Assembly (NCBI GenBank): GCA_043812055.1
Contig: JBDRMN010000058.1
Coordinates: forward strand, 184-64,183
Reading direction: 5' to 3'
Length of the DNA: 64,000 nt
From: Patescibacteria group bacterium
GTDB lineage: Bacteria > Patescibacteriota > Gracilibacteria > JAHISY01
Shown: piece by piece, positions 1,039 through 51,506 of the stretch
Position numbering within the stretch: the first letter of the stretch is position 1
How the letters are laid out: every line of letters starts with the position of its first letter
Position numbers and translations under genes: made by a program
Notes under the pieces: model-generated
Database searches by the model: none
What the model was told of the DNA's origin: nothing
The model's input: the letters and a program-made list of their open reading frames with translations, nothing else

Positions 1039-1083
1039 TTTTTGCCTTCTTGCTCTCTTTTTTTGTCTTCCCCGCCTCTCTTT

Positions 1084-1143
1084 TGTCTTCCCCGCGAAAG
1101 CGGGGATCCAGATCATTCCCCCGCTTGACGGGGGAATCCAGAC
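1084..1143 (+). repeat. Two GC hairpin units (TGTC-TTCCCCGC-GAAA-GCGGGGA-TCCAG; TTCCCCCG-CTTGA-CGGGGGAA-TCCAGAC)
   Basis: Stems and loops read directly from the sequence. Confidence 0.9.
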
Positions 1144-1233
1144 ACTTCTACCTGTTTAGCAGCAGTTTAGGAATATGAACTTTTATTCATGTAAGTTTTC
1201 GGGTTTTGGCTGATGCGTCTAGAATTGTCAGCT

Positions 1234-1536
1234 ATGTTTGTAGAAAAAATCTACTACGTTTATATTCTGGCCAGTAAAAAGAACGGCACTCTTTATGTCG
1301 GCGTTACAAACGATTTAGGATCAAGAGTTCGAGAACACAGACAAGGAGAAGGTAGTAAGTTTGCCAAGAAGTACAAAGTGAACAAGCTAGTCTACTTCGA
1401 AGATCACGGAGATGTGACTGAAGCAATTGCCCGAGAGAAACAAATTAAGAAGTGGGAACGAAAATGGAAACTGGAGCTAATCGAAAAGAACAATCCCGAA
1501 TGGCAGGATTTGTATTTCAAAGTTTACGAAGGGTAG
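1234..1536 (+). CDS. Small GIY-YIG (URI-domain) nuclease, COG2827/YhbQ-like
   Basis: 100 aa from the internal ATG: MFVEKIYYVYILASKKNGTLYVGVTNDLGSRVREH... with GIY..YVG..R..H/E motifs. 84/100 identical to the copy at 24214-24516. Confidence 0.85.
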   Translation: MFVEKIYYVYILASKKNGTLYVGVTNDLGSRVREHRQGEGSKFAKKYKVNKLVYFEDHGDVTEAIAREKQIKKWERKWKLELIEKNNPEWQDLYFKVYEG

Positions 1537-1540
1537 TTTT

Positions 1541-1597
1541 CTGGAATCCCGCGTACGCGGGATTATTTTCTGGGTTCCCGCTTTCGCGGGAATGACA
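1541..1597 (+). repeat. Two hairpin units in inverse orientation (CTGGA-ATCCCGCG-TA-CGCGGGAT; CTGGG-TTCCCGC-TTTC-GCGGGAA-TGACA)
   Basis: Read directly. 1575-1606 is identical to 24613-24644 (32 nt). Confidence 0.9.
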
Positions 1598-1643
1598 ATG
1601 TTTTTATTTTTTAAAGAGTCTTCTCGCGGGGAAGATAAAAGTA

Positions 1644-3275
1644 CTACATTTTCTTCGGCGCCCCCACCCCCACCAAATCTTCCAACACTATTCGCAAAAC
1701 TTCTTTGGTAACAGCAGTCAGCCGCAAACGGGCGGCAGTCAATTTTTCGTTATTATTATCAATCACCCGACAGTTTTCATAAAATTTATGGAAGAGTTCA
1801 GCGAGTTCGCGCGCGTAAGTCGTGAGCGTATGAATCGCGTAGCTTTCCGAAATTTCTGCCACCAAATCCGGCAGCTCGCTCATCTTTTTGATGAGATCCA
1901 GCTCCTCCGGTTTTTCGATTAATTTGAGATCACTTTTTTTGTAATCAATTTTGCCGGCCTTCGCGAGAATTGAAGCGAGCCGGGTGTGAGCATACTGCAC
2001 GTAGTAAACCGGATTATCATTGCTCTGTTTCTTCGCTAGCTCCAGATCAAAATTCAGATGCGTATTCCAATCACGCATTACAAAAAACCAGCGCGCCGCA
2101 TCAGCTCCAACTTCATCAATCAGATCGTCCATCAGCTCGAAATCCCCCGCCCGCTTACTCATCCGCACTTCTTTGCCTTCGCGAAAGAGTTTGACGAGCT
2201 GGGTAATGATTACCTCCACTTCCCCGAAACCCAGCATTTTCACCCCCGCCTTGAGCCGCGAAATGTAGCCGTGGTGATCCGCCCCCCAGATGTCGATCAG
2301 CTTCGTGAAACCCCGTTCGAATTTATCCTTGTGATACATCAGATCCGGCAAGAGGTAGGTTGCGGTCCCATCACTTTTTACAATCACCCGATCTTTATCA
2401 TCGCCATCTGCACTCGTCTTGAGAAAAAGCGCGCCGTCTTTCTTGTAAGTCAGTTTTTTCTTTTTGAGAAAATCCAAAGTCGCCTCAATCCCCCCGCCTT
2501 CCCGCAAGGTACTCTCGTGAAACCACTCGTCAAACTTGATTTCCATTTTTTTGACCGAGGGTTTGATTTCCTCTTCTAAGAGAATGTCCGCAAAGGCCTT
2601 TCCTGTTTCTCTCGCATCATCCGAAATCTTGTCAGCGTACTTCTTCGCCAGCTTATCTATATATTCCCCCTGATAAAATTCTTCCCCGTCACGTCGTTCG
2701 TGAACGACGTGGCCTGCGGCAGCCTGAATACTCGTTCCTAAAATCTCAACCTGCTTACCAGAGTCATTCAGATAAAACTCCCGCGCCACATCATAACCGG
2801 CTCGCGTAAGCACCCTCGCTAACACATCTCCCCCAAACCCGCCTCGCCCATTTGCAATCGTGAGCGGCCCTGTGGGATTGGCAGAAATAAACTCAAGTAA
2901 AACCTTCTCTTTTCCCTGTCCTGAGCGAGTCCGCCGCGGCGGACGAGTCGAAGTGGCGAACTTTTTGCCCTGCTTCTCAATCTCCGCGAGCACAGCTTGG
3001 AAAATTTCTGGTTTCAGAAAGATATTGATAAAGCCCGGACCGGCAATTTCGGCCTTTTTTATAAACTGCTGGTCGAGCTTCCCGACTATTTCCTCGGCCA
3101 GCTCCCGCGGGTTTTTCTTGAGCTTTTTTGCTAAAATGAGCGCTGCGTTACAGGCAAGATCGCCAAACTTTTTTTCGGGTGGCGTTTCGAGCGTGAAATC
3201 ACACTTTTCAGGATTGCCTTGAGTGTCACAAGGGAGGGCAGCCTGGACGATCTTGGTAACTCGTGCGATTAGCAT
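1644..3275 (-). CDS. argS: Arginyl-tRNA synthetase
   Basis: 543 aa. Shows SANPTGPL at the HIGH region, ADHHGY, RMSKRAGD at the KMSK position, and C-terminal YVQYAHTR (DALR anticodon-binding) signatures. Confidence 0.9.
   Translation of the reverse strand: MLIARVTKIVQAALPCDTQGNPEKCDFTLETPPEKKFGDLACNAALILAKKLKKNPRELAEEIVGKLDQQFIKKAEIAGPGFINIFLKPEIFQAVLAEIEKQGKKFATSTRPPRRTRSGQGKEKVLLEFISANPTGPLTIANGRGGFGGDVLARVLTRAGYDVAREFYLNDSGKQVEILGTSIQAAAGHVVHERRDGEEFYQGEYIDKLAKKYADKISDDARETGKAFADILLEEEIKPSVKKMEIKFDEWFHESTLREGGGIEATLDFLKKKKLTYKKDGALFLKTSADGDDKDRVIVKSDGTATYLLPDLMYHKDKFERGFTKLIDIWGADHHGYISRLKAGVKMLGFGEVEVIITQLVKLFREGKEVRMSKRAGDFELMDDLIDEVGADAARWFFVMRDWNTHLNFDLELAKKQSNDNPVYYVQYAHTRLASILAKAGKIDYKKSDLKLIEKPEELDLIKKMSELPDLVAEISESYAIHTLTTYARELAELFHKFYENCRVIDNNNEKLTAARLRLTAVTKEVLRIVLEDLVGVGAPKKM
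2915..2958. repeat. GC-rich palindromic unit inside the argS coding sequence
   Basis: CCTGTCCTGAGCGAGTCCGCCGCGGCGGACGAGTCGAAGTGGCG. The core GTCCGCCG/CGGCGGAC is a perfect 16-nt palindrome. It encodes ...TSTRPPRRTRSGQGK... on the minus strand. Confidence 0.7.
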
Positions 3276-3281
3276 GGAGGG

Positions 3282-3290
3282 ATTTTAACA
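3282..3290 (-). promoter_or_regulatory. Extended -10-like TGTTAAAAT, 6 nt before the argS ATG
   Basis: The minus strand reads TGTTAAAATCCCTCC-ATG. The same 12-mer TGTTAAAATCCC precedes trmD and gatB. Confidence 0.5.
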
Positions 3291-3385
3291 GGGATTGTAG
3301 TCGAACAAATAAACTGTTCTTAAAGTCAGCCTAAAAAAATGTTCGAGTTCTGTAAAAATCAGTAAAATCCGATATCAATTAAAAA

Positions 3386-5017
3386 ATGGCTCTTAAGAAT
3401 TCACTTCCATTTTTCGATTCACTACCACCTGACGACAAAGTCAGGAGTGAAATAGAGTTTGAATCCACTCTCCGTAGGGCCAAAGATGAGAACATGCCTA
3501 TCGCTACGGTGGCGGGTGGAACTCCAGTCTGCTGCATAGATGGTAAGTTTTCTCATGGTAAAGGTGTAACCGACAGGATAAATGGTCAGAAACGAGTAAT
3601 AGAGCCAGGCAAAGGACCTTCCGAGACAGAGATAGAGAGCTTGGAATTAGGCATGCAACTTATTAAGCATCTAAACCAAGAAGGTATTTCGAACATACTA
3701 GGGATACCCGAGTTTGACACACAGGGAGTTCCTCCAAAAGAGCGTGAAATCCTTCGTAAGCTCGGTTCGGAAGAGCTCGTGAGGATGTTTTTGCCTAAGA
3801 AGTATGAAGAAATAATTGGATCAAATATAGACCACGTAAGAATATTATTCTCTTCCGGCTACAGTCATGCTACTGGCGAACTCCTTAAAGGTGCTAAACG
3901 CAGACTAGATAGTAATCTGAGTAATACCGAAACAGCAGAGGGCAAAATTGCTAAGTTCTTTTATGAAACTACGGCCCTTATGTATAACGCTTATGTAAAG
4001 GCAGCCAAAAGTCCCTTCGTGCATCATGTTTTGCTTACTACCCCTCTTTCGCGCAAAGAACCACGACCGGAAGAAGAAATTAGTCTTGGTCTCGATATAG
4101 TGGATACTCTTCAGGTGTTAGGGTGCATCCTTTTAACTTTTGAAGACAAAATTCATTGCGGATCAGTAACCGCAGGGCGTCTTTCCGCGATAAGACGCTT
4201 ACTTGGAAAAATCTTTGATCAGATTAATAAAAATACTCCCATTATCACCGTAACTTTTCAGGATATTGTTGACGACGGAATGAGTGGTGTTAACTGGATG
4301 CGAGGTGTAGACATGCTTACAACTTTAAGTAAGGTTTTTGACCTACATTTACTTTTTCTTTCTCAGCGGGGAAAAATCGAGCGTTCCTTTTCCTCTCAGA
4401 TAAGTAAAAATGCGAAAGACGCCTATAAAGACGTACTGCACGGCAAAATAAAAACCGGGATCAGGGAATCAAAAATAGCCCTTCCTGAGGATGTACACAA
4501 CGTTATTGAAAATACCGAAAAGAGTGGGGAATTGCTATATCAACACCTACGTGAAGAGATTAAAGAAGTCACTCATACAGACAGATTAAAAATCGTTCCT
4601 CAAATCGGAAGTACATCCCTCAATCTAAGGGGAGATCCCGACGATAGAAATGTTAGAGATAAAATCGAATATGCGGCCGCAAGAGACCGAGCAGCAAAAG
4701 CAGCAGAAGAAGAAAAAACTCAATTAAGAGATACTGTAAGTGGATTTACTGCGGAGGCTCGGGCAACTGTAAACGAAATAGCTAAATCTACGACAGCAAC
4801 GGGACAATCAAAAATTAGGCAATTAAAAAAGTTGATTTTGAACCTGGCTTCAGAGATCAAAGATAGTGCTGAAGATAAAGACAAGGCAATGGCTGAAAGA
4901 ACGAGTCCACCAGACAGAAGAAAAAAACGGCAAGTAGGCAAAATACCTAATGGCACAGATAGGAGAAGTGGATTCAAGGATCGAAAAGATTGTGAATCTA
5001 AATCCTGCACCATATGA
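3386..5017 (+). CDS. Hypothetical protein, 543 aa, no recognisable domain (AT-rich ORFan)
   Basis: Long uninterrupted ORF with a charged, Lys/Arg-rich C-terminus. Composition is visibly AT-richer than the neighbouring genes. Confidence 0.6.
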   Translation: MALKNSLPFFDSLPPDDKVRSEIEFESTLRRAKDENMPIATVAGGTPVCCIDGKFSHGKGVTDRINGQKRVIEPGKGPSETEIESLELGMQLIKHLNQEGISNILGIPEFDTQGVPPKEREILRKLGSEELVRMFLPKKYEEIIGSNIDHVRILFSSGYSHATGELLKGAKRRLDSNLSNTETAEGKIAKFFYETTALMYNAYVKAAKSPFVHHVLLTTPLSRKEPRPEEEISLGLDIVDTLQVLGCILLTFEDKIHCGSVTAGRLSAIRRLLGKIFDQINKNTPIITVTFQDIVDDGMSGVNWMRGVDMLTTLSKVFDLHLLFLSQRGKIERSFSSQISKNAKDAYKDVLHGKIKTGIRESKIALPEDVHNVIENTEKSGELLYQHLREEIKEVTHTDRLKIVPQIGSTSLNLRGDPDDRNVRDKIEYAAARDRAAKAAEEEKTQLRDTVSGFTAEARATVNEIAKSTTATGQSKIRQLKKLILNLASEIKDSAEDKDKAMAERTSPPDRRKKRQVGKIPNGTDRRSGFKDRKDCESKSCTI

Positions 5018-5024
5018 TTTACCA

Positions 5025-7403
5025 ATGAAATCAGCTAAAAACACACAGCTCGGGAAAACAACGAGTGAGATTCTGCGTGATCTCAAAGTCGCGAATGAAA
5101 CTCTCCGTGCCGCCCACAATAAAAATGACGTGATCAATTTTGCGATTCGTTTTTTCCTGAAGCTTGGTTTTGATCGCGTGCGCGTCTGGCTAATAGACCA
5201 AGAGAGAGGCCTCAAGCATGGGGCGAAGTGTAGCTATATGCCCGACAGAAAATTTCAGAAGGCGGCAGTCGAGCTCCGTTTGCAGGACAGTAAAATACTC
5301 CCCATCAACTACATAAAAATAATCAAGCGGAAAAAGCCCTTCGTCAACAGGACCTTCCCGGTACTAAAAAACTTTTTCGGCGAAAAGAAGCTGAAGTATT
5401 CGGTCGAGTTCCCTCTCTTCGCCAGCCAGCACCCTCTCGGCCTCATCTCCGTCGACAACGCTGTCACCGGGCGGCCACTCGACACCAAGCAGACCGATCG
5501 TTTCATGCCTTTCGTCAATCAAATCGCTTTCGCGCTTGATCGAGTCATCCTGAGCGAGAAACTCGCTAAGACCAATATAGCGCTCAAGCAAAAGGTTACC
5601 AGCGCCACTGCTGAGCTAAAAACAAAAAATACCGAGCTGGAACACCTCGCCCACTACGACGAACTGAGTCAGCTACCCAACCGACGTTGCTTCGAAAAAT
5701 ACCTCAGCAAAGAGTTTAAAAAGGCTAGTCCCAGATGCACTCTGACTTTGGCCATGTTGGATATTGATTTCCTCAAGCATGTCAACGACACACACGGGCA
5801 CGATGCCGGCGACAAGTTAATCATCCAAATTGGCGCCATTCTCAAGAAAAACAAAGCTATCACTTTGGCTGCTCGTTTTGCCGGTGATGAATTTGTCTTT
5901 TTGCTCGTCAATAAATCAGCCAAGAAACACAGAGAGATTCTCGAGCGCCTGCTGCGCAGGATCAAGACCGCCACCAAAGAAACTGTCAGCATCGGGGTGG
6001 TGACTTGCCCCGATCCCAAGATTAAATCGGAAATTGATCTCCTGCGGATTGCCGACGATGCGCTTTACCACGCCAAACATACCGGTCGTGATCGTTTCGT
6101 CTGCGCTTTGGGCGAGAACACCGATGTTATTCCACTCGCCCAGAGACGCAAGGACCTGCAGGAAATCGAAAAGCACGGAACTTTCGCCGGCGACTACATT
6201 CGCCAGCTAAAGGCTGTCAATAAAATTTCCGAGCATCTTCGAACCGCTGTCAAAGAACAAACTATCCTCAAAAAAATAACGACAACTATTCGACGTGAGC
6301 TGGACTTCAAAAAAGTCTATCTCTATACGAAAAAAAGAGAGGATGAGGAGAGTAGCGACGAGTTAAGGCTGGCCGCTACCTCCGGGATCAGTAAAAAGGC
6401 TGAGAAAAAAATTCGGCATGGCTCTCGCGTCTTCCGCAAAAGCGGTTCTGTCGAACGCGCAATTCAAAGTCGTCGGGTGATTGATTTACGCGTCCGTAAT
6501 ATATCTCCACAGTTTGTCAAACTTTTTCGCACCAAGACGGCTCTGGTCATTCCCCTGATCGGCCGCTTCCACACTATCGGAGCGATAGTCGCTGAATACG
6601 ATATCGGTCGTCATTTCCGGGAAAGCGACCACCGTTTCTTCCTGACGCTAGGCGATCAGATCGAGAATGGGATTGTCAAAGCTCAGGCAATCAGAAATAT
6701 CGAAAGCTTCAATCGTAAGCTCAAACGGGAAGTCTCCGCCGCCACCCGTAAGCTAAAAGAACACTCGCGCTCACTAGGGCAACAAGTCAAGGACAATCAG
6801 AATCTACGTGGAAAGGAGCGACGTACGAATTTCGAACTGATCTCGGCACTGGCCACCAGTCTTGAAGAAAAAGACATCTACACCCGGGGTCACTCTGTGC
6901 GCGTAGCCAACTACGCCTGCCGGTTGGGAGCCGCTCTTGATTTTACCGAAAAGCAACTGGTCAACTTGCGTTACGCGGGGCTGCTCCACGATGTCGGTAA
7001 GGTGGCGATTGATCAATCCGTGCTCAATAAACGCACTGCTCTGAGTGAAGCCGAGATGAAAGAACTCGCCAAGCACCCTGTCGTGGGAGAAAAAATTGTT
7101 TCTTCCGTACGTTTCCTCCGGGATACCGCCCACATTATTCGCCACCATCACGAGCGCTGGGACGGTGCTGGTTATCCTGATCATGAAAAAGGAACCCGGA
7201 TCCCGGTCGAGTCACGCATCCTGGCTATCGCCGATGCTTACGACGCAATGATCACGCGCCGCAGCTACGGCAAGGCCATGAAAAAGAGTGCCGCAATCAA
7301 CGAGTTGATCACCGGCGGCGGCAAGCAGTTTGATCCTAAGTTAGTCAAGCTTTTCGCAAAATTGATGCGAAAATCACGTTCCCGCCCCAAAAAGAAATCC
7401 TAG
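5025..7403 (+). CDS. GAF-GGDEF-GAF-HD-GYP signalling protein (putative c-di-GMP cyclase/phosphodiesterase)
   Basis: GGDEF domain: LPNRR...DIDFLKHVNDTHGHDAGD...RFAGDEF...ADDALYHAKHTGRDR. HD-GYP domain: HSVRV...LLHDVGK...HHERWDGAGYP...ADAYDAM. Start moved to ATG 5025 to avoid overlap with the upstream ORF. Confidence 0.85.
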   Translation: MKSAKNTQLGKTTSEILRDLKVANETLRAAHNKNDVINFAIRFFLKLGFDRVRVWLIDQERGLKHGAKCSYMPDRKFQKAAVELRLQDSKILPINYIKIIKRKKPFVNRTFPVLKNFFGEKKLKYSVEFPLFASQHPLGLISVDNAVTGRPLDTKQTDRFMPFVNQIAFALDRVILSEKLAKTNIALKQKVTSATAELKTKNTELEHLAHYDELSQLPNRRCFEKYLSKEFKKASPRCTLTLAMLDIDFLKHVNDTHGHDAGDKLIIQIGAILKKNKAITLAARFAGDEFVFLLVNKSAKKHREILERLLRRIKTATKETVSIGVVTCPDPKIKSEIDLLRIADDALYHAKHTGRDRFVCALGENTDVIPLAQRRKDLQEIEKHGTFAGDYIRQLKAVNKISEHLRTAVKEQTILKKITTTIRRELDFKKVYLYTKKREDEESSDELRLAATSGISKKAEKKIRHGSRVFRKSGSVERAIQSRRVIDLRVRNISPQFVKLFRTKTALVIPLIGRFHTIGAIVAEYDIGRHFRESDHRFFLTLGDQIENGIVKAQAIRNIESFNRKLKREVSAATRKLKEHSRSLGQQVKDNQNLRGKERRTNFELISALATSLEEKDIYTRGHSVRVANYACRLGAALDFTEKQLVNLRYAGLLHDVGKVAIDQSVLNKRTALSEAEMKELAKHPVVGEKIVSSVRFLRDTAHIIRHHHERWDGAGYPDHEKGTRIPVESRILAIADAYDAMITRRSYGKAMKKSAAINELITGGGKQFDPKLVKLFAKLMRKSRSRPKKKS

Positions 7404-24130: not shown

Positions 24131-24644
24131 TGTCATCCCGGCCGATCCCGAGCCTGTCGAGGGAGAGAGCCGGGACCCAGACAAAATTTCCGCGCAAGCG
24201 GAAATCCAAACAATCAACCCTCGTAAAACTTAAAATACAAATCCTTCCATTCGGGGTTATTCTTTTCTATTAATTCTAGTTTCCACTTTCGCCTCCACTT
24301 CTTAATTTGTTTCTCTCGGGCAATTGCCTCAACTATATCTCCGTGTTCTTCGTAATAAACAAGCTTATTTATCTTATATTTCTTCGCAAATTTACTACCC
24401 TTTCCTTCCCTGTGTTCTCGAACTCTCAAGCCTGGATCATTGGTAACACCAATGTAAAGGGTGCCATTCTTCCTGCTCGCCAAGATATAGACGTAATAGA
24501 TTTTTTCTGTCCACATAGCTGGTAATTCTAAATGTATTAACTAAAACTCAAAAACTTACATGAACTAAAGTTCATGTTTCTGGACCCCTGCTTTCGCAGG
24601 GGATAATCTGGTTTCCCGCTTTCGCGGGAATGACAATGTTTTTA
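24131..24644. mobile_element. Candidate GIY-YIG cassette copy 2 (gene inverted relative to copy 1)
   Basis: Left units at 24131-24182 and 24186-24210. Right units at 24580-24602 and 24608-24635. 24613-24644 is identical to 1575-1606. Confidence 0.55.
24214..24516 (-). CDS. Small GIY-YIG (URI-domain) nuclease, second copy
   Basis: MWTEKIYYVYILASRKNGTLYIGVTNDPGLRVREH...; 84/100 identical to the protein at 1234-1536. Confidence 0.85.
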   Translation of the reverse strand: MWTEKIYYVYILASRKNGTLYIGVTNDPGLRVREHREGKGSKFAKKYKINKLVYYEEHGDIVEAIAREKQIKKWRRKWKLELIEKNNPEWKDLYFKFYEG

Positions 24645-24715
24645 GTTTTTTATTCAAATTATTTTTACCGTGAAAGTATGACAATTTCCCGCGTTACTTC
24701 TAAACTCATCAAAGT

Positions 24716-27661: not shown

Positions 27662-27690
27662 GTAGGAACGCCCCGGCGGGGCGTTCCTAC
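27662..27690. terminator. Perfect 13-bp stem, 3-nt loop hairpin between convergent genes
   Basis: GTAGGAACGCCCC-GGC-GGGGCGTTCCTAC. There is no clean U-tract on either side, so a terminator role is inferred only from its position. Confidence 0.5.
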
Positions 27691-49919: not shown

Positions 49920-51506
49920 TTACCATCCCTCCTCAAAAAGTTCTTCGGCGGTTTCGACCAGACTCTTTTTCGCCAGTGCCGGACTGCTGGCTGCCGGATC
50001 CGGTGCACTTGATTTTAGTCCGATTTCTGCTCGTTCGACGTCTACCTGGACCGACGTTCCCAATAGTTCTGAAAAAATCTCAGCCAGCCCCGCTCGGGCT
50101 TCTTTACTTTCGAGCTTACCCATCAAAAAATCCGAACCAACCCCTAGCACCACTTTGTCATCTTCGGTACGCAAAACGATACACTCTTTCAAAGCTAGTT
50201 TGATCGCCGACTTCTTGACCTTGGTAATCACCTCAGGCAACGCCGCCTTGGCCGCCTCCAGGCTCAGCCCTTTGGGGGCTTTAACTTCTTTAGCTGGCTG
50301 CGTTTTTGATTTAGCAGGGCTCTTCTTTTCTGAGGTCTCACTCTTTTTACTAGCACCCTTGTCCGCCGTAGTTTCGCCTTGCGGAGCGGAGGCGGATGAA
50401 ACCTGCTTGCCCTGAGCTTGCCGAAGGGTTCCCTGCTTGCCCGCCGAAGCCTTGGCGAAGGCGGGGAACCTGGAACCTGTCACGTCGCTCGCGAGCGACG
50501 TGACCTGAATTACAGCCATCTCCAGCGGCAACTGTGGAATAATCGCATTCTTCAGTTCCTCCCCTGTCCGAGTAAAAACCTCGACAATGGTGAGAACTTC
50601 TTTGGCTTCCGCCAGGCAGTTTTCAGCCACCTTCTCGAGCATGATCTCTCGCAAACGCATCAGGAGATTTTTATTGAATTGAATCAGATTTACCCCCTCG
50701 GCGACCAAACCGTTGATCGTCTCGAGAGCTTCGGGAAGTTTCTGAAAGAGCAGGGCAAAGACAAAATCCTCCACCGCCTGTGGACGGGTCAGCCCGAGAT
50801 TTTGGGCAACTGCCGCTGTGTTAATTTCTCCGGTCTGCCCGAACTGTTCGAGCATCCCCACAGCATCCCGCATGCCTCCGGCCGACTGCTTAGCAATTAG
50901 CTCCAAAGCTTCGGGCTCAGCCTTGATCCCCTCTTTTTCCGCAATCTCCGCCAGGTGTTTGGTGATCTTGGCATTCTCAATCCGGTGAAAATCAAAACGC
51001 TGGGTGCGAGAGAGAACCGTCTCGGGAACTTTGTGAGGTTCGGTGGTAGCAAGGATAAAGTAAGCGTGTCCCGGTGGTTCTTCCAGAGTTTTCAGCAAAG
51101 CGTTGAAGGCTTCCTTGGTCAGCATGTGCGCTTCATCAATCACGTAAACTTTGACCCGCGCCCGCGAAGGGGTGAATTGAATCTTTTCTTTAAGCTCGCG
51201 AATTTCATCGATACCCCGATTGCTCGCTGCATCGATTTCGATCAAATCAACTAAGCGACCATTCAGGGCGTCCACGCAAATCTCACACTCGTTGCAAGGC
51301 TCACCATCCTCGTCTGGATTGAGACAGTTGAGCGAACGGGCGATTATCCGAGCCAGGGAAGTCTTGCCTGTTCCGCGGGTTCCCGCGAAGAGGTAAGCAT
51401 GCGTGAGCCCCTTGTTTTTGAGAGCATTACGAAAAGTCTGTTTGACATGATCTTGCCCTACAATTTCGGCTAATTTCTGCGGTCGGTATTTGCGGTAGAA
51501 ACTCAA
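49920..51506 (-). CDS. dnaX: DNA polymerase III gamma/tau subunit
   Basis: YRPQKLAEIVGQDHV, GTRGTGKTS, a Zn module CxxC...CNECEIC, and VIDEAHML. TTG start. Confidence 0.92.
   Translation of the reverse strand: MSFYRKYRPQKLAEIVGQDHVKQTFRNALKNKGLTHAYLFAGTRGTGKTSLARIIARSLNCLNPDEDGEPCNECEICVDALNGRLVDLIEIDAASNRGIDEIRELKEKIQFTPSRARVKVYVIDEAHMLTKEAFNALLKTLEEPPGHAYFILATTEPHKVPETVLSRTQRFDFHRIENAKITKHLAEIAEKEGIKAEPEALELIAKQSAGGMRDAVGMLEQFGQTGEINTAAVAQNLGLTRPQAVEDFVFALLFQKLPEALETINGLVAEGVNLIQFNKNLLMRLREIMLEKVAENCLAEAKEVLTIVEVFTRTGEELKNAIIPQLPLEMAVIQVTSLASDVTGSRFPAFAKASAGKQGTLRQAQGKQVSSASAPQGETTADKGASKKSETSEKKSPAKSKTQPAKEVKAPKGLSLEAAKAALPEVITKVKKSAIKLALKECIVLRTEDDKVVLGVGSDFLMGKLESKEARAGLAEIFSELLGTSVQVDVERAEIGLKSSAPDPAASSPALAKKSLVETAEELFEEGW
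50358..50504. repeat. Cluster of four GC hairpin units in frame within dnaX
   Basis: Units at 50358-50400 and 50406-50433, a near-palindrome at 50433-50473 (CCCGCCGAAGCCTTGGCGAAGGCGGG) and a perfect 26-nt palindrome at 50479-50504 (GTCACGTCGCTCG/CGAGCGACGTGAC). Confidence 0.85.

Follow-up and report, generated by a model that had tools for sequence, protein, structure and literature searches.

Ssn proteins form a family of single-domain GIY-YIG proteins of ~94 amino acids (Chenal et al. 2025, Nat Commun, PMC11893778), and a candidate member of this family, with its hairpins, is described here from a 64,000-nucleotide stretch of a Patescibacteria group bacterium (contig JBDRMN010000058.1, positions 184 to 64,183), which we call the window. 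Ssn binds an oriented 28-nucleotide hairpin, in single-stranded DNA only, and its cut falls upstream of the hairpin by a few nucleotides. This recognition site is named NTS in Neisseria, where it reads CGTCATTCCCGCGMAVGCGGGAATCYRG, and Ssn-related motif (SRM) in general. Four Ssn homologues have been assayed, all of them proteobacterial: binding depends on the hairpin and the base after it, cutting requires the three bases before it and affects one strand only, and duplex DNA and RNA are ignored, and an RNA version of the hairpin is not a ligand of N. meningitidis SsnA. Cleavage by that enzyme is abolished by mutation of Y6, Y17 or E64, and the protein has a transformation phenotype; the role proposed in Neisseria is cutting of incoming DNA at hundreds of genomic sites. 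SRM units adjoin 71% of ssn homologues, with units on both sides in 42%. The authors likened the NTS-ssnA-NTS layout to an insertion sequence (IS), to IS200/IS605, and to repetitive extragenic palindromes and their REP-associated tyrosine transposases (REP/RAYT), and raised the mobility of ssn as a hypothesis only (PMC11893778).

Judging from sequence, we consider it probable, at roughly 0.82, that a region near the left end of the window is an SRM-ssn-SRM module, in which a gene for an Ssn-family single-strand DNA endonuclease is accompanied by its cognate recognition hairpins (Table 1). A preliminary description of this locus held that no element of the type had been described, a statement that is out of date because the family, its hairpins and the NTS-ssnA-NTS layout are set out by Chenal et al. 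2025 (PMC11893778). What is new here is a member in a new host group, together with previously unpublished statistics on convergent hairpin orientation, filled and empty sites, outer and inner unit types, and arrays of half units.

The gonococcal orthologue of SsnA, taken from two N. gonorrhoeae chromosomes that are filed as plasmids in PLSDB, served as a proxy for N. meningitidis SsnA. A tblastn search with the window protein found a single ssnA locus in the N. gonorrhoeae chromosomes, with an E-value of 3e-25; the published criterion for Ssn homology is a tblastn E < 1e-10, with domain assignment cd10448 (GIY-YIG_unchar_3) (PMC11893778). The 94-codon gonococcal frame aligns with the window protein free of gaps at 52% identity (BLASTP E 2e-36), and Y6, Y17 and E64 of SsnA align with Y10, Y21 and E68, residues that are invariant in 25 homologues. 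The window protein resembles the Ssn system in its single GIY-YIG domain, its size (~94-100 amino acids) and its catalytic residues. In the N. gonorrhoeae strain of locus L177, the 94-codon ssnA frame begins with ATT, not ATG.

The hairpins are similar as well. The published SRM pattern has three matches in the window, at 1084-1111 (+), 1570-1597 (-) and 24608-24635 (-), against 0.27 in shuffled sequences. All three are outer units of two ssn cassettes, and the first copy is flanked on both sides, as are many ssn genes in the published set. The oriented 28-nucleotide hairpin of the window, TGTCATTCCCGCGAAAGCGGGAAYCCAG, is nearly identical to the published CGTCATTCCCGCGMAVGCGGGAATCYRG. The locus differs from those in the Ssn paper in several respects. 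The host belongs to the Patescibacteria, or Candidate Phyla Radiation (CPR), a group not mentioned there (PMC11893778). At each cassette end, a complete outer unit is joined by an inner unit without the GTC flank, and a conserved leader of 90 nucleotides is present. Finally, unlike in Neisseria, the hairpins are confined to the cassettes and do not occur as hundreds of dispersed copies.

Table 1. Coordinates of the two ssn cassettes in the window and their associated elements.
Feature	Position	Strand	Remarks
Outer 5'-arm half unit TTTTGTCTTCCCCGC	1061-1075	+	repeats 1081-1095 exactly, in direct orientation; lies 20 nt before the complete unit
Outer upstream SRM/NTS unit, complete	1084-1111	+	TGTC flank, 7-bp stem, GAAA loop, TCCAG flank
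Inner upstream unit	1115-1142	+	9-bp stem, TCCAGA flank, without GTC 5' flank
Conserved leader, ~90 nt	1143-1233	+	hairpin 1174-1192 followed by T-run; TAGAAT box 1220-1225, ending 8 nt before ATG
ssn gene, copy 1	1234-1536	+	100-aa single-domain GIY-YIG protein, Ssn family
Inner downstream unit	1538-1564	-	reverse orientation; 21.2 bits (E 4e-4) with covariance model
Outer downstream SRM/NTS unit, complete	1570-1597	-	fits SRM pattern; covariance model 49.4 bits, E 6e-13
Mirrored outer-arm half unit TCGCGGGGAAGATAAAAG	1624-1641	-	94% complementary to 1080-1097
Second cassette, same layout	24131-24635	-	found by tblastn of copy 1 protein
ssn gene, copy 2	24214-24516	-	84% aa identity to copy 1
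Copy 2 upstream units	outer 24608-24635, inner 24577-24603	-	
Copy 2 downstream units	inner 24186-24208, outer 24131-24179		outer unit has a long stem

The association of hairpin and gene extends over many phyla. A scan of species-representative genomes yielded 80 ssn loci at 56-69% protein identity, and strict SRM units in these loci occur at 1.42 per kb within 350 nucleotides of ssn, compared with 0.035 per kb farther out. Orientation relative to the coding strand is strongly biased, with 34 forward and 5 reverse units upstream and 7 forward and 31 reverse units downstream, and a looser detector finds the order forward unit, gene, reverse unit in 35 of the 80 loci. Stem pairing reaches 98% in a set of 70 distinct units drawn from many phyla, and five of the eight stem pairs covary (38 double-change cells versus 6.3 in shuffles). 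The flanks, too, are conserved across phyla and have a fixed orientation. These patterns indicate that the hairpin is a selected structure linked to ssn.

A covariance model built from the units has significant matches (E < 0.01) in the window only beside the two GIY-YIG genes, and in 55 kb of sister and relative loci only beside ssn genes, so that no dispersed units were found away from ssn in either set. As a negative control we used 360 kb of unrelated xth loci from a metagenome scan with Xth, in which the model detects three units and which contain no ssn gene. The preliminary description had reasoned that the hairpins might be generic terminators if they flanked unrelated genes equally often, which is not what these counts reveal. 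The same metagenome scan, made for population-level presence or absence of the cassette, returned only relatives of at most 57% identity.

Within copy 1, the unit positions and sequences of the preliminary description (units 1084-1111, 1116-1143, 1541-1563 and 1570-1597; half units 1064-1075 and 1626-1637) are all correct, including the 24 positions out of 28 that 1084-1111 shares with the reverse complement of 1570-1597. A repeat search extends these to inverted arms of 42 nucleotides (1083-1124 and 1557-1598) that are 79% complementary. The outer upstream unit fits the published SRM pattern, scores 46 bits with the covariance model (E 7e-12) and is predicted to fold as a DNA hairpin of -9.3 kcal/mol, whereas the model aligns with the inner upstream unit from position 8 only (17.6 bits, E 0.006; -10.3 kcal/mol). 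Single-stranded DNA folding distinguishes seven of the eight units in the two cassettes (-8.3 to -10.3 kcal/mol, z -3.7 to -5.5); the exception is the unit of copy 2 with the long stem (z -1.3). The more general pattern TCCCSS-N3-8-SSGGGA occurs six times in the window against 0.39 expected, and five of the six are inside the cassettes. On the + strand, the inner downstream unit (1545-1564) is followed by ATTTTCT and scores as terminator-like, and this unit may double as the terminator of ssn. The other units fail a criterion of GC stem plus T-run: upstream units have no T-run, and that of the outer units is 8-9 nucleotides off.

The leader is common to all four cassettes of the lineage in alignments of the window with a sister genome, and its hairpin in copy 2 was flagged as terminator-like. 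Its TAGAAT box would be a promoter element by our inference; a scan for the sigma-70 consensus found no promoter in copy 1. An Rfam scan of positions 900-1800 at a permissive threshold gave sub-threshold chance matches only.

The second cassette sits between a DUF1206 gene and thrS. The outer TGTC marks the start of similarity between the copies, and the outer TGACA, together with a short T-rich tail, marks its end; the flanking sequences are unrelated, and no terminal repeat is common to both copies beyond the units and that tail. The proposal that a discrete nuclease cassette lies between inverted hairpin ends, with boundaries shared by its copies, is borne out by this comparison. The copies are 78% identical in nucleotide sequence. 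The first downstream unit of copy 2 in the sister genome (CTGGAATCCCGCGTACGCGGGATTATTTTCTGG, L004 3466-3498) is identical to that of window copy 1 (1541-1573) and not to that of window copy 2, and the orthologous copy 2 cassettes carry two units per side in the window against three in the sister genome. These observations suggest that the copies have exchanged sequence or that the arrays turn over rapidly. In a test for gene conversion, site patterns favour plain orthology (17 versus 6 and 6). Synonymous divergence (dS) of the copy 2 pair is high, at 2.7, a value estimated from 100 codons only.

Both cassettes occupy the same two sites in the sister genome, where neighbouring proteins are 86-92% identical and neighbouring genes have dS values of 0.65-1.56 relative to the window. 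ThrS relatives of the window organism include Peribacteraceae. Empty sites, which had been put forward as a check on the cassette idea, were found in more distant relatives. In L010 (75% ThrS identity, same gene order on both sides), thrS begins 10 nucleotides after a pabB-like gene, and neither the DUF1206 gene nor the cassette is present. In L013 and L015 (72-73% ArgS identity), the argS-xth spacers are 76 and 172 nucleotides long and lack ssn, and one of these two relatives has ssn on the other side of xth. A further relative, P0245, has a 407-nucleotide argS-xth spacer without a called gene, according to annotation only. The empty sites of L010 and L015 contain no hairpin target. Taken together, these comparisons show a discrete unit that entered or left this Patescibacteria lineage as one piece. 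Its two diverged copies are now passed on vertically and have been stable since before the window and sister genomes split.

The 76-nucleotide xth-argS spacer of L013 (3780-3855) includes an AT-rich hairpin with SRM-like flanks, TGTCA-TCCTGAA-TTTA-TTTCAGGA-TCTC, as well as TTCCAGATCA and GACAAT. This hairpin, to which the covariance model assigns no score, may be what is left of a decayed cassette.

Signs of movement come from other genomes. In Candidatus Desulfacyla euxinica, a 517-bp hairpin-ssn-hairpin block is 98.6% identical on two contigs (L080 and L083, at 2874-3390 in each) with unrelated flanks, and looks like a recent duplication. Outside its hairpins, the block is bounded by a 20-23-bp inverted repeat, GCATTACCAGTTTGTTAAAG. 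The same two loci contain convergent hairpin pairs without a gene (L080 5115-5197 and L083 4126-4210), each with a forward unit, a spacer of ~22-25 nucleotides and a reverse unit, which may have arisen from a cassette by deletion or may be places where one can land. In L015 (6116-6463; also in L016), a 115-amino-acid ssn open reading frame (ORF) carries a complete unit, TGTCATTCCCGTGAAAACGGGAATCCAGA, in frame at 6249-6277, suggesting that single units can insert alone, even into the nuclease gene.

Partial hairpins also accompany the cassettes. The preliminary description interpreted the two half units outside copy 1 as an older hairpin split by the insertion. This explanation fails, since each of them represents the outer (5') arm, one mirroring the other, and the two cannot be halves of one oriented hairpin; moreover, both are absent from the sister genome, where the cassette is at the same site. 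Across phyla, the outer-arm sequence recurs within 70 nucleotides outside the unit in 13 of 94 units, compared with 2 on the inner side. About 10 of the 13 are partnerless truncated arms, often in tandem, and the others are neighbouring complete units. Truncated arms occur in Omnitrophus (L032), Planctomycetales, Dehalococcoidia and other Patescibacteria, and the spacer in Omnitrophus nearly matches that of the window (TTCTCTTTC against CTCTCTTT). Downstream of the L015 ssn that contains the in-frame unit, the half unit TTGTCATTTCCGCCCCCCCAC is present twice in tandem, and beside N. gonorrhoeae ssnA (L177 490-570) a reverse unit is followed by the partial arm copies GCGGGAATGACG, GCGGGAATGATG and GGGGATAACG. 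Half units recur at cassette ends and change fast there, in the form of mirrored outer-arm duplications.

By analogy with the four homologues studied (PMC11893778), a mechanism can be proposed for this lineage. When DNA is single-stranded, an SRM unit would fold into its hairpin, and Ssn would read the stem and the 3' TCCAG flank and cleave that strand by hydrolysis, a few nucleotides to the 5' side of the GTC flank. Because the coding strand carries the upstream units and its complement the downstream ones, the predicted nicks would fall just outside the cassette on opposite strands, ~3 nucleotides beyond its ends: on the + strand at the left outer unit and on the - strand at the right outer unit. 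Inner units keep TCCAG and lack GTC, and so may be bound without being cut. GIY-YIG enzymes hydrolyse DNA, forming no covalent intermediate and rejoining no strands, and for this reason transposase-type strand transfer is unlikely. Recombination or repair at the hairpin ends, or hitch-hiking, would be the most likely ways for the cassette to pass from genome to genome and, occasionally, to move inside a single genome.

Several points weigh against the module interpretation or narrow it. The cleavage position and strand given above are extrapolated from the four proteobacterial homologues. Because units in this lineage are found only beside ssn, with none dispersed, the role proposed in Neisseria, trimming incoming DNA at many sites, is not directly transferable as it stands. 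The two copies are old, at 78% nucleotide identity, and occupy the same sites in the sister genome, so no recent movement is seen here. Presence and absence among relatives fit deletion as well as insertion, and the L013 spacer has a weak SRM-like hairpin. Lastly, the Desulfacyla inverted repeats outside the hairpins hint at mobilisation by other machinery.

The cassette might instead be an autonomous mobile element, in which Ssn nicks outside the convergent end hairpins and the block is then copied to new sites by the replication or repair of the host. It would then home into other hairpin sites, the gene-less pairs being targets or non-autonomous derivatives, and the in-frame solo unit and half units being derivatives and footprints. 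The convergent end units, which would place both nicks just outside the cassette, agree with this idea, as do the recent Desulfacyla duplicate with gene-less pairs in the same loci, the complete unit within the L015 ORF and the tandem outer-arm half units, which could be repair footprints. Protein identity of 56-69% over many phyla suggests horizontal spread, and the hypothesis has been raised before (PMC11893778). The window and sister loci, however, contain neither near-identical copies nor solo hairpins that could act as targets, the sister genome has both copies at unchanged positions, and the empty sites in L010 and L015 are without a hairpin target. A hydrolytic GIY-YIG enzyme, moreover, cannot rejoin strands. 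We regard full autonomy as unlikely, with perhaps one chance in a few of being correct.

Domestication is somewhat less probable still. In this alternative, which follows the proposal for Neisseria, Ssn trims single-stranded DNA, such as transforming DNA or replication or repair intermediates, at hairpin sites as a host function, and the flanking units mark or regulate the locus of an immobile cassette. In its favour, both copies are under strong purifying selection, positions are stable in two genomes whose neighbouring genes have diverged at dS 0.65-1.56, and N. meningitidis SsnA has its transformation phenotype (PMC11893778). However, the 64 kb of the window offer the enzyme no dispersed units as substrates, both sites are without the cassette in relatives, one of which carries it elsewhere, and two paralogues with private sets of hairpins are hard to explain as housekeeping.

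It is improbable that the block is passive cargo, moved in trans by an unrelated transposase or recombinase through terminal inverted repeats outside the hairpins. Such repeats are present around the Desulfacyla block, and copy 1 has a 15-nucleotide imperfect inverted repeat (1061-1075 and 1626-1640), but the latter repeat consists of a hairpin arm, and the sister genome lacks it. The window copies also lack a common terminal repeat beyond the units and the T-rich tail, and no transposase gene adjoins either cassette in the window.

IS200/IS605 elements have both hairpins on one strand, encode a Y1 transposase (TnpA), and undergo precise excision and insertion. A single-strand transposon of this kind, or of the REP/RAYT kind, with a GIY-YIG protein in place of the Y1 transposase, would share with the cassette its subterminal hairpins, which an encoded nuclease recognises in single-stranded DNA, as is the case for Ssn (PMC11893778). 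In copy 1, however, the + strand carries the upstream units and the - strand the downstream ones, and the same split between coding and opposite strand holds over the 80 loci. This placement of end hairpins on opposite strands, combined with hydrolytic chemistry that leaves no covalent 5'-phosphotyrosine link, makes peel-and-paste transposition very improbable. A domain scan of the copy 1 protein, in which an HUH/Y1 domain was looked for and not found, gave GIY-YIG only, and there are two diverged copies only. Of the IS200/IS605 or REP/RAYT logic invoked in the preliminary description, the inverted-repeat layout survives, as in REP/RAYT, whereas the opposite strands and the missing HUH/Y1 domain speak against IS200/IS605 chemistry. 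That the hairpins are ordinary terminators or RNA elements with no functional tie to the nuclease is scarcely credible, in spite of the terminator-like score of the inner downstream unit with its ATTTTCT, because the units sit almost only beside ssn and have covarying stems, upstream units lack a T-run and the outer units have theirs 8-9 nucleotides away, the oriented flanks are conserved across phyla, Rfam has no match, and N. meningitidis SsnA shows no binding of an RNA version (PMC11893778).

Other known systems share individual features with the locus. RAYTs belong to the HUH/Y1 enzymes and act through covalent chemistry, while REPs are scattered over the whole genome. The resemblance to REP/RAYT, a nuclease gene between inverted copies of its own single-stranded hairpin repeat, is therefore one of layout only, as the enzyme here is GIY-YIG and no repeats are dispersed in 64 kb of the window and 55 kb of relatives. 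GIY-YIG homing endonucleases, such as I-TevI and I-BmoI, have long DNA-binding extensions, cut duplex DNA and reside in introns or phage genomes; they resemble the window protein in their GIY-YIG core and, potentially, in a selfish lifestyle based on DNA breaks and host repair. A match to TIGR01453 (group I intron endonuclease) reached 21.3 bits against a cut-off of 56 bits, there is no C-terminal DNA-binding extension, and assignment to this class was rejected. The dRS3 repeats and intergenic mosaic elements of Neisseria have the same palindromic core, ATTCCC-N8-GGGAAT, and partial arms lie beside the gonococcal ssnA units; they differ in being dispersed there in hundreds of copies clustered around surface-protein genes. 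UPF0213/YhbQ proteins are of similar size and the same fold family. A PDB sequence search with the window protein retrieved only these as distant matches (1zg2 and 1ywl, E 8e-7 and 3e-5) and no Ssn structure, and we know of no hairpin association for them.

If the module assignment is correct, the Ssn/hairpin system, characterised so far in Proteobacteria, is also present in the reduced genomes of Patescibacteria. Hairpins around ssn alone would constitute a minimal state that looks more like a selfish cassette than like genome-wide control of transformation. The filled and empty orthologous sites provide a simple system for asking whether and how Ssn modules move. Ssn enzymes are also of practical interest as sequence-specific cutters of single-stranded DNA, and the two diverged copies, which differ in their hairpin variants, are candidates for new specificities.

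The copy 1 gene lies between xth (265-1038, +) and argS (1644-3275, -), both of which converge on it. PF01541 (GIY-YIG) matches residues 7-80 of the protein with an E-value of 6e-19, the related family T5orf172 is the sole other domain match and covers the same stretch, and the protein ends ~20 residues beyond the catalytic domain. The ratio of nonsynonymous to synonymous divergence (dN/dS) is 0.02-0.06 for both window ssn genes, indicating functional genes under strong purifying selection. Scans with NCBIfam and PADLOC gave nothing over the cut-offs, and an exact-sequence look-up of the copy 1 protein returned no identical record. The relative P0002, at 92% identity, led to the sister genome.

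A promoter-like site on the + strand at 24678-24706 (ATGACA, 17 nucleotides, TAAACT) ends 9 nucleotides before the thrS start, and its first hexamer is within TGACAATTTCCCGCG, a piece resembling a hairpin arm. Given the 10-nucleotide distance between thrS and its upstream gene in L010, thrS may have acquired a new promoter along with the cassette insertion. Elsewhere in the window, two perfect palindromes with the common arms CACGTCG/CGACGTG, one in argS (2690-2711, CACGTCGTTCGTGAACGACGTG) and the other at 50479-50504 (GTCACGTCGCTCGCGAGCGACGTGAC), are unrelated to SRM units. A perfect 13-bp GC-rich stem at 27662-27690 (GTAGGAACGCCCC-GGC-GGGGCGTTCCTAC) is probably a terminator.

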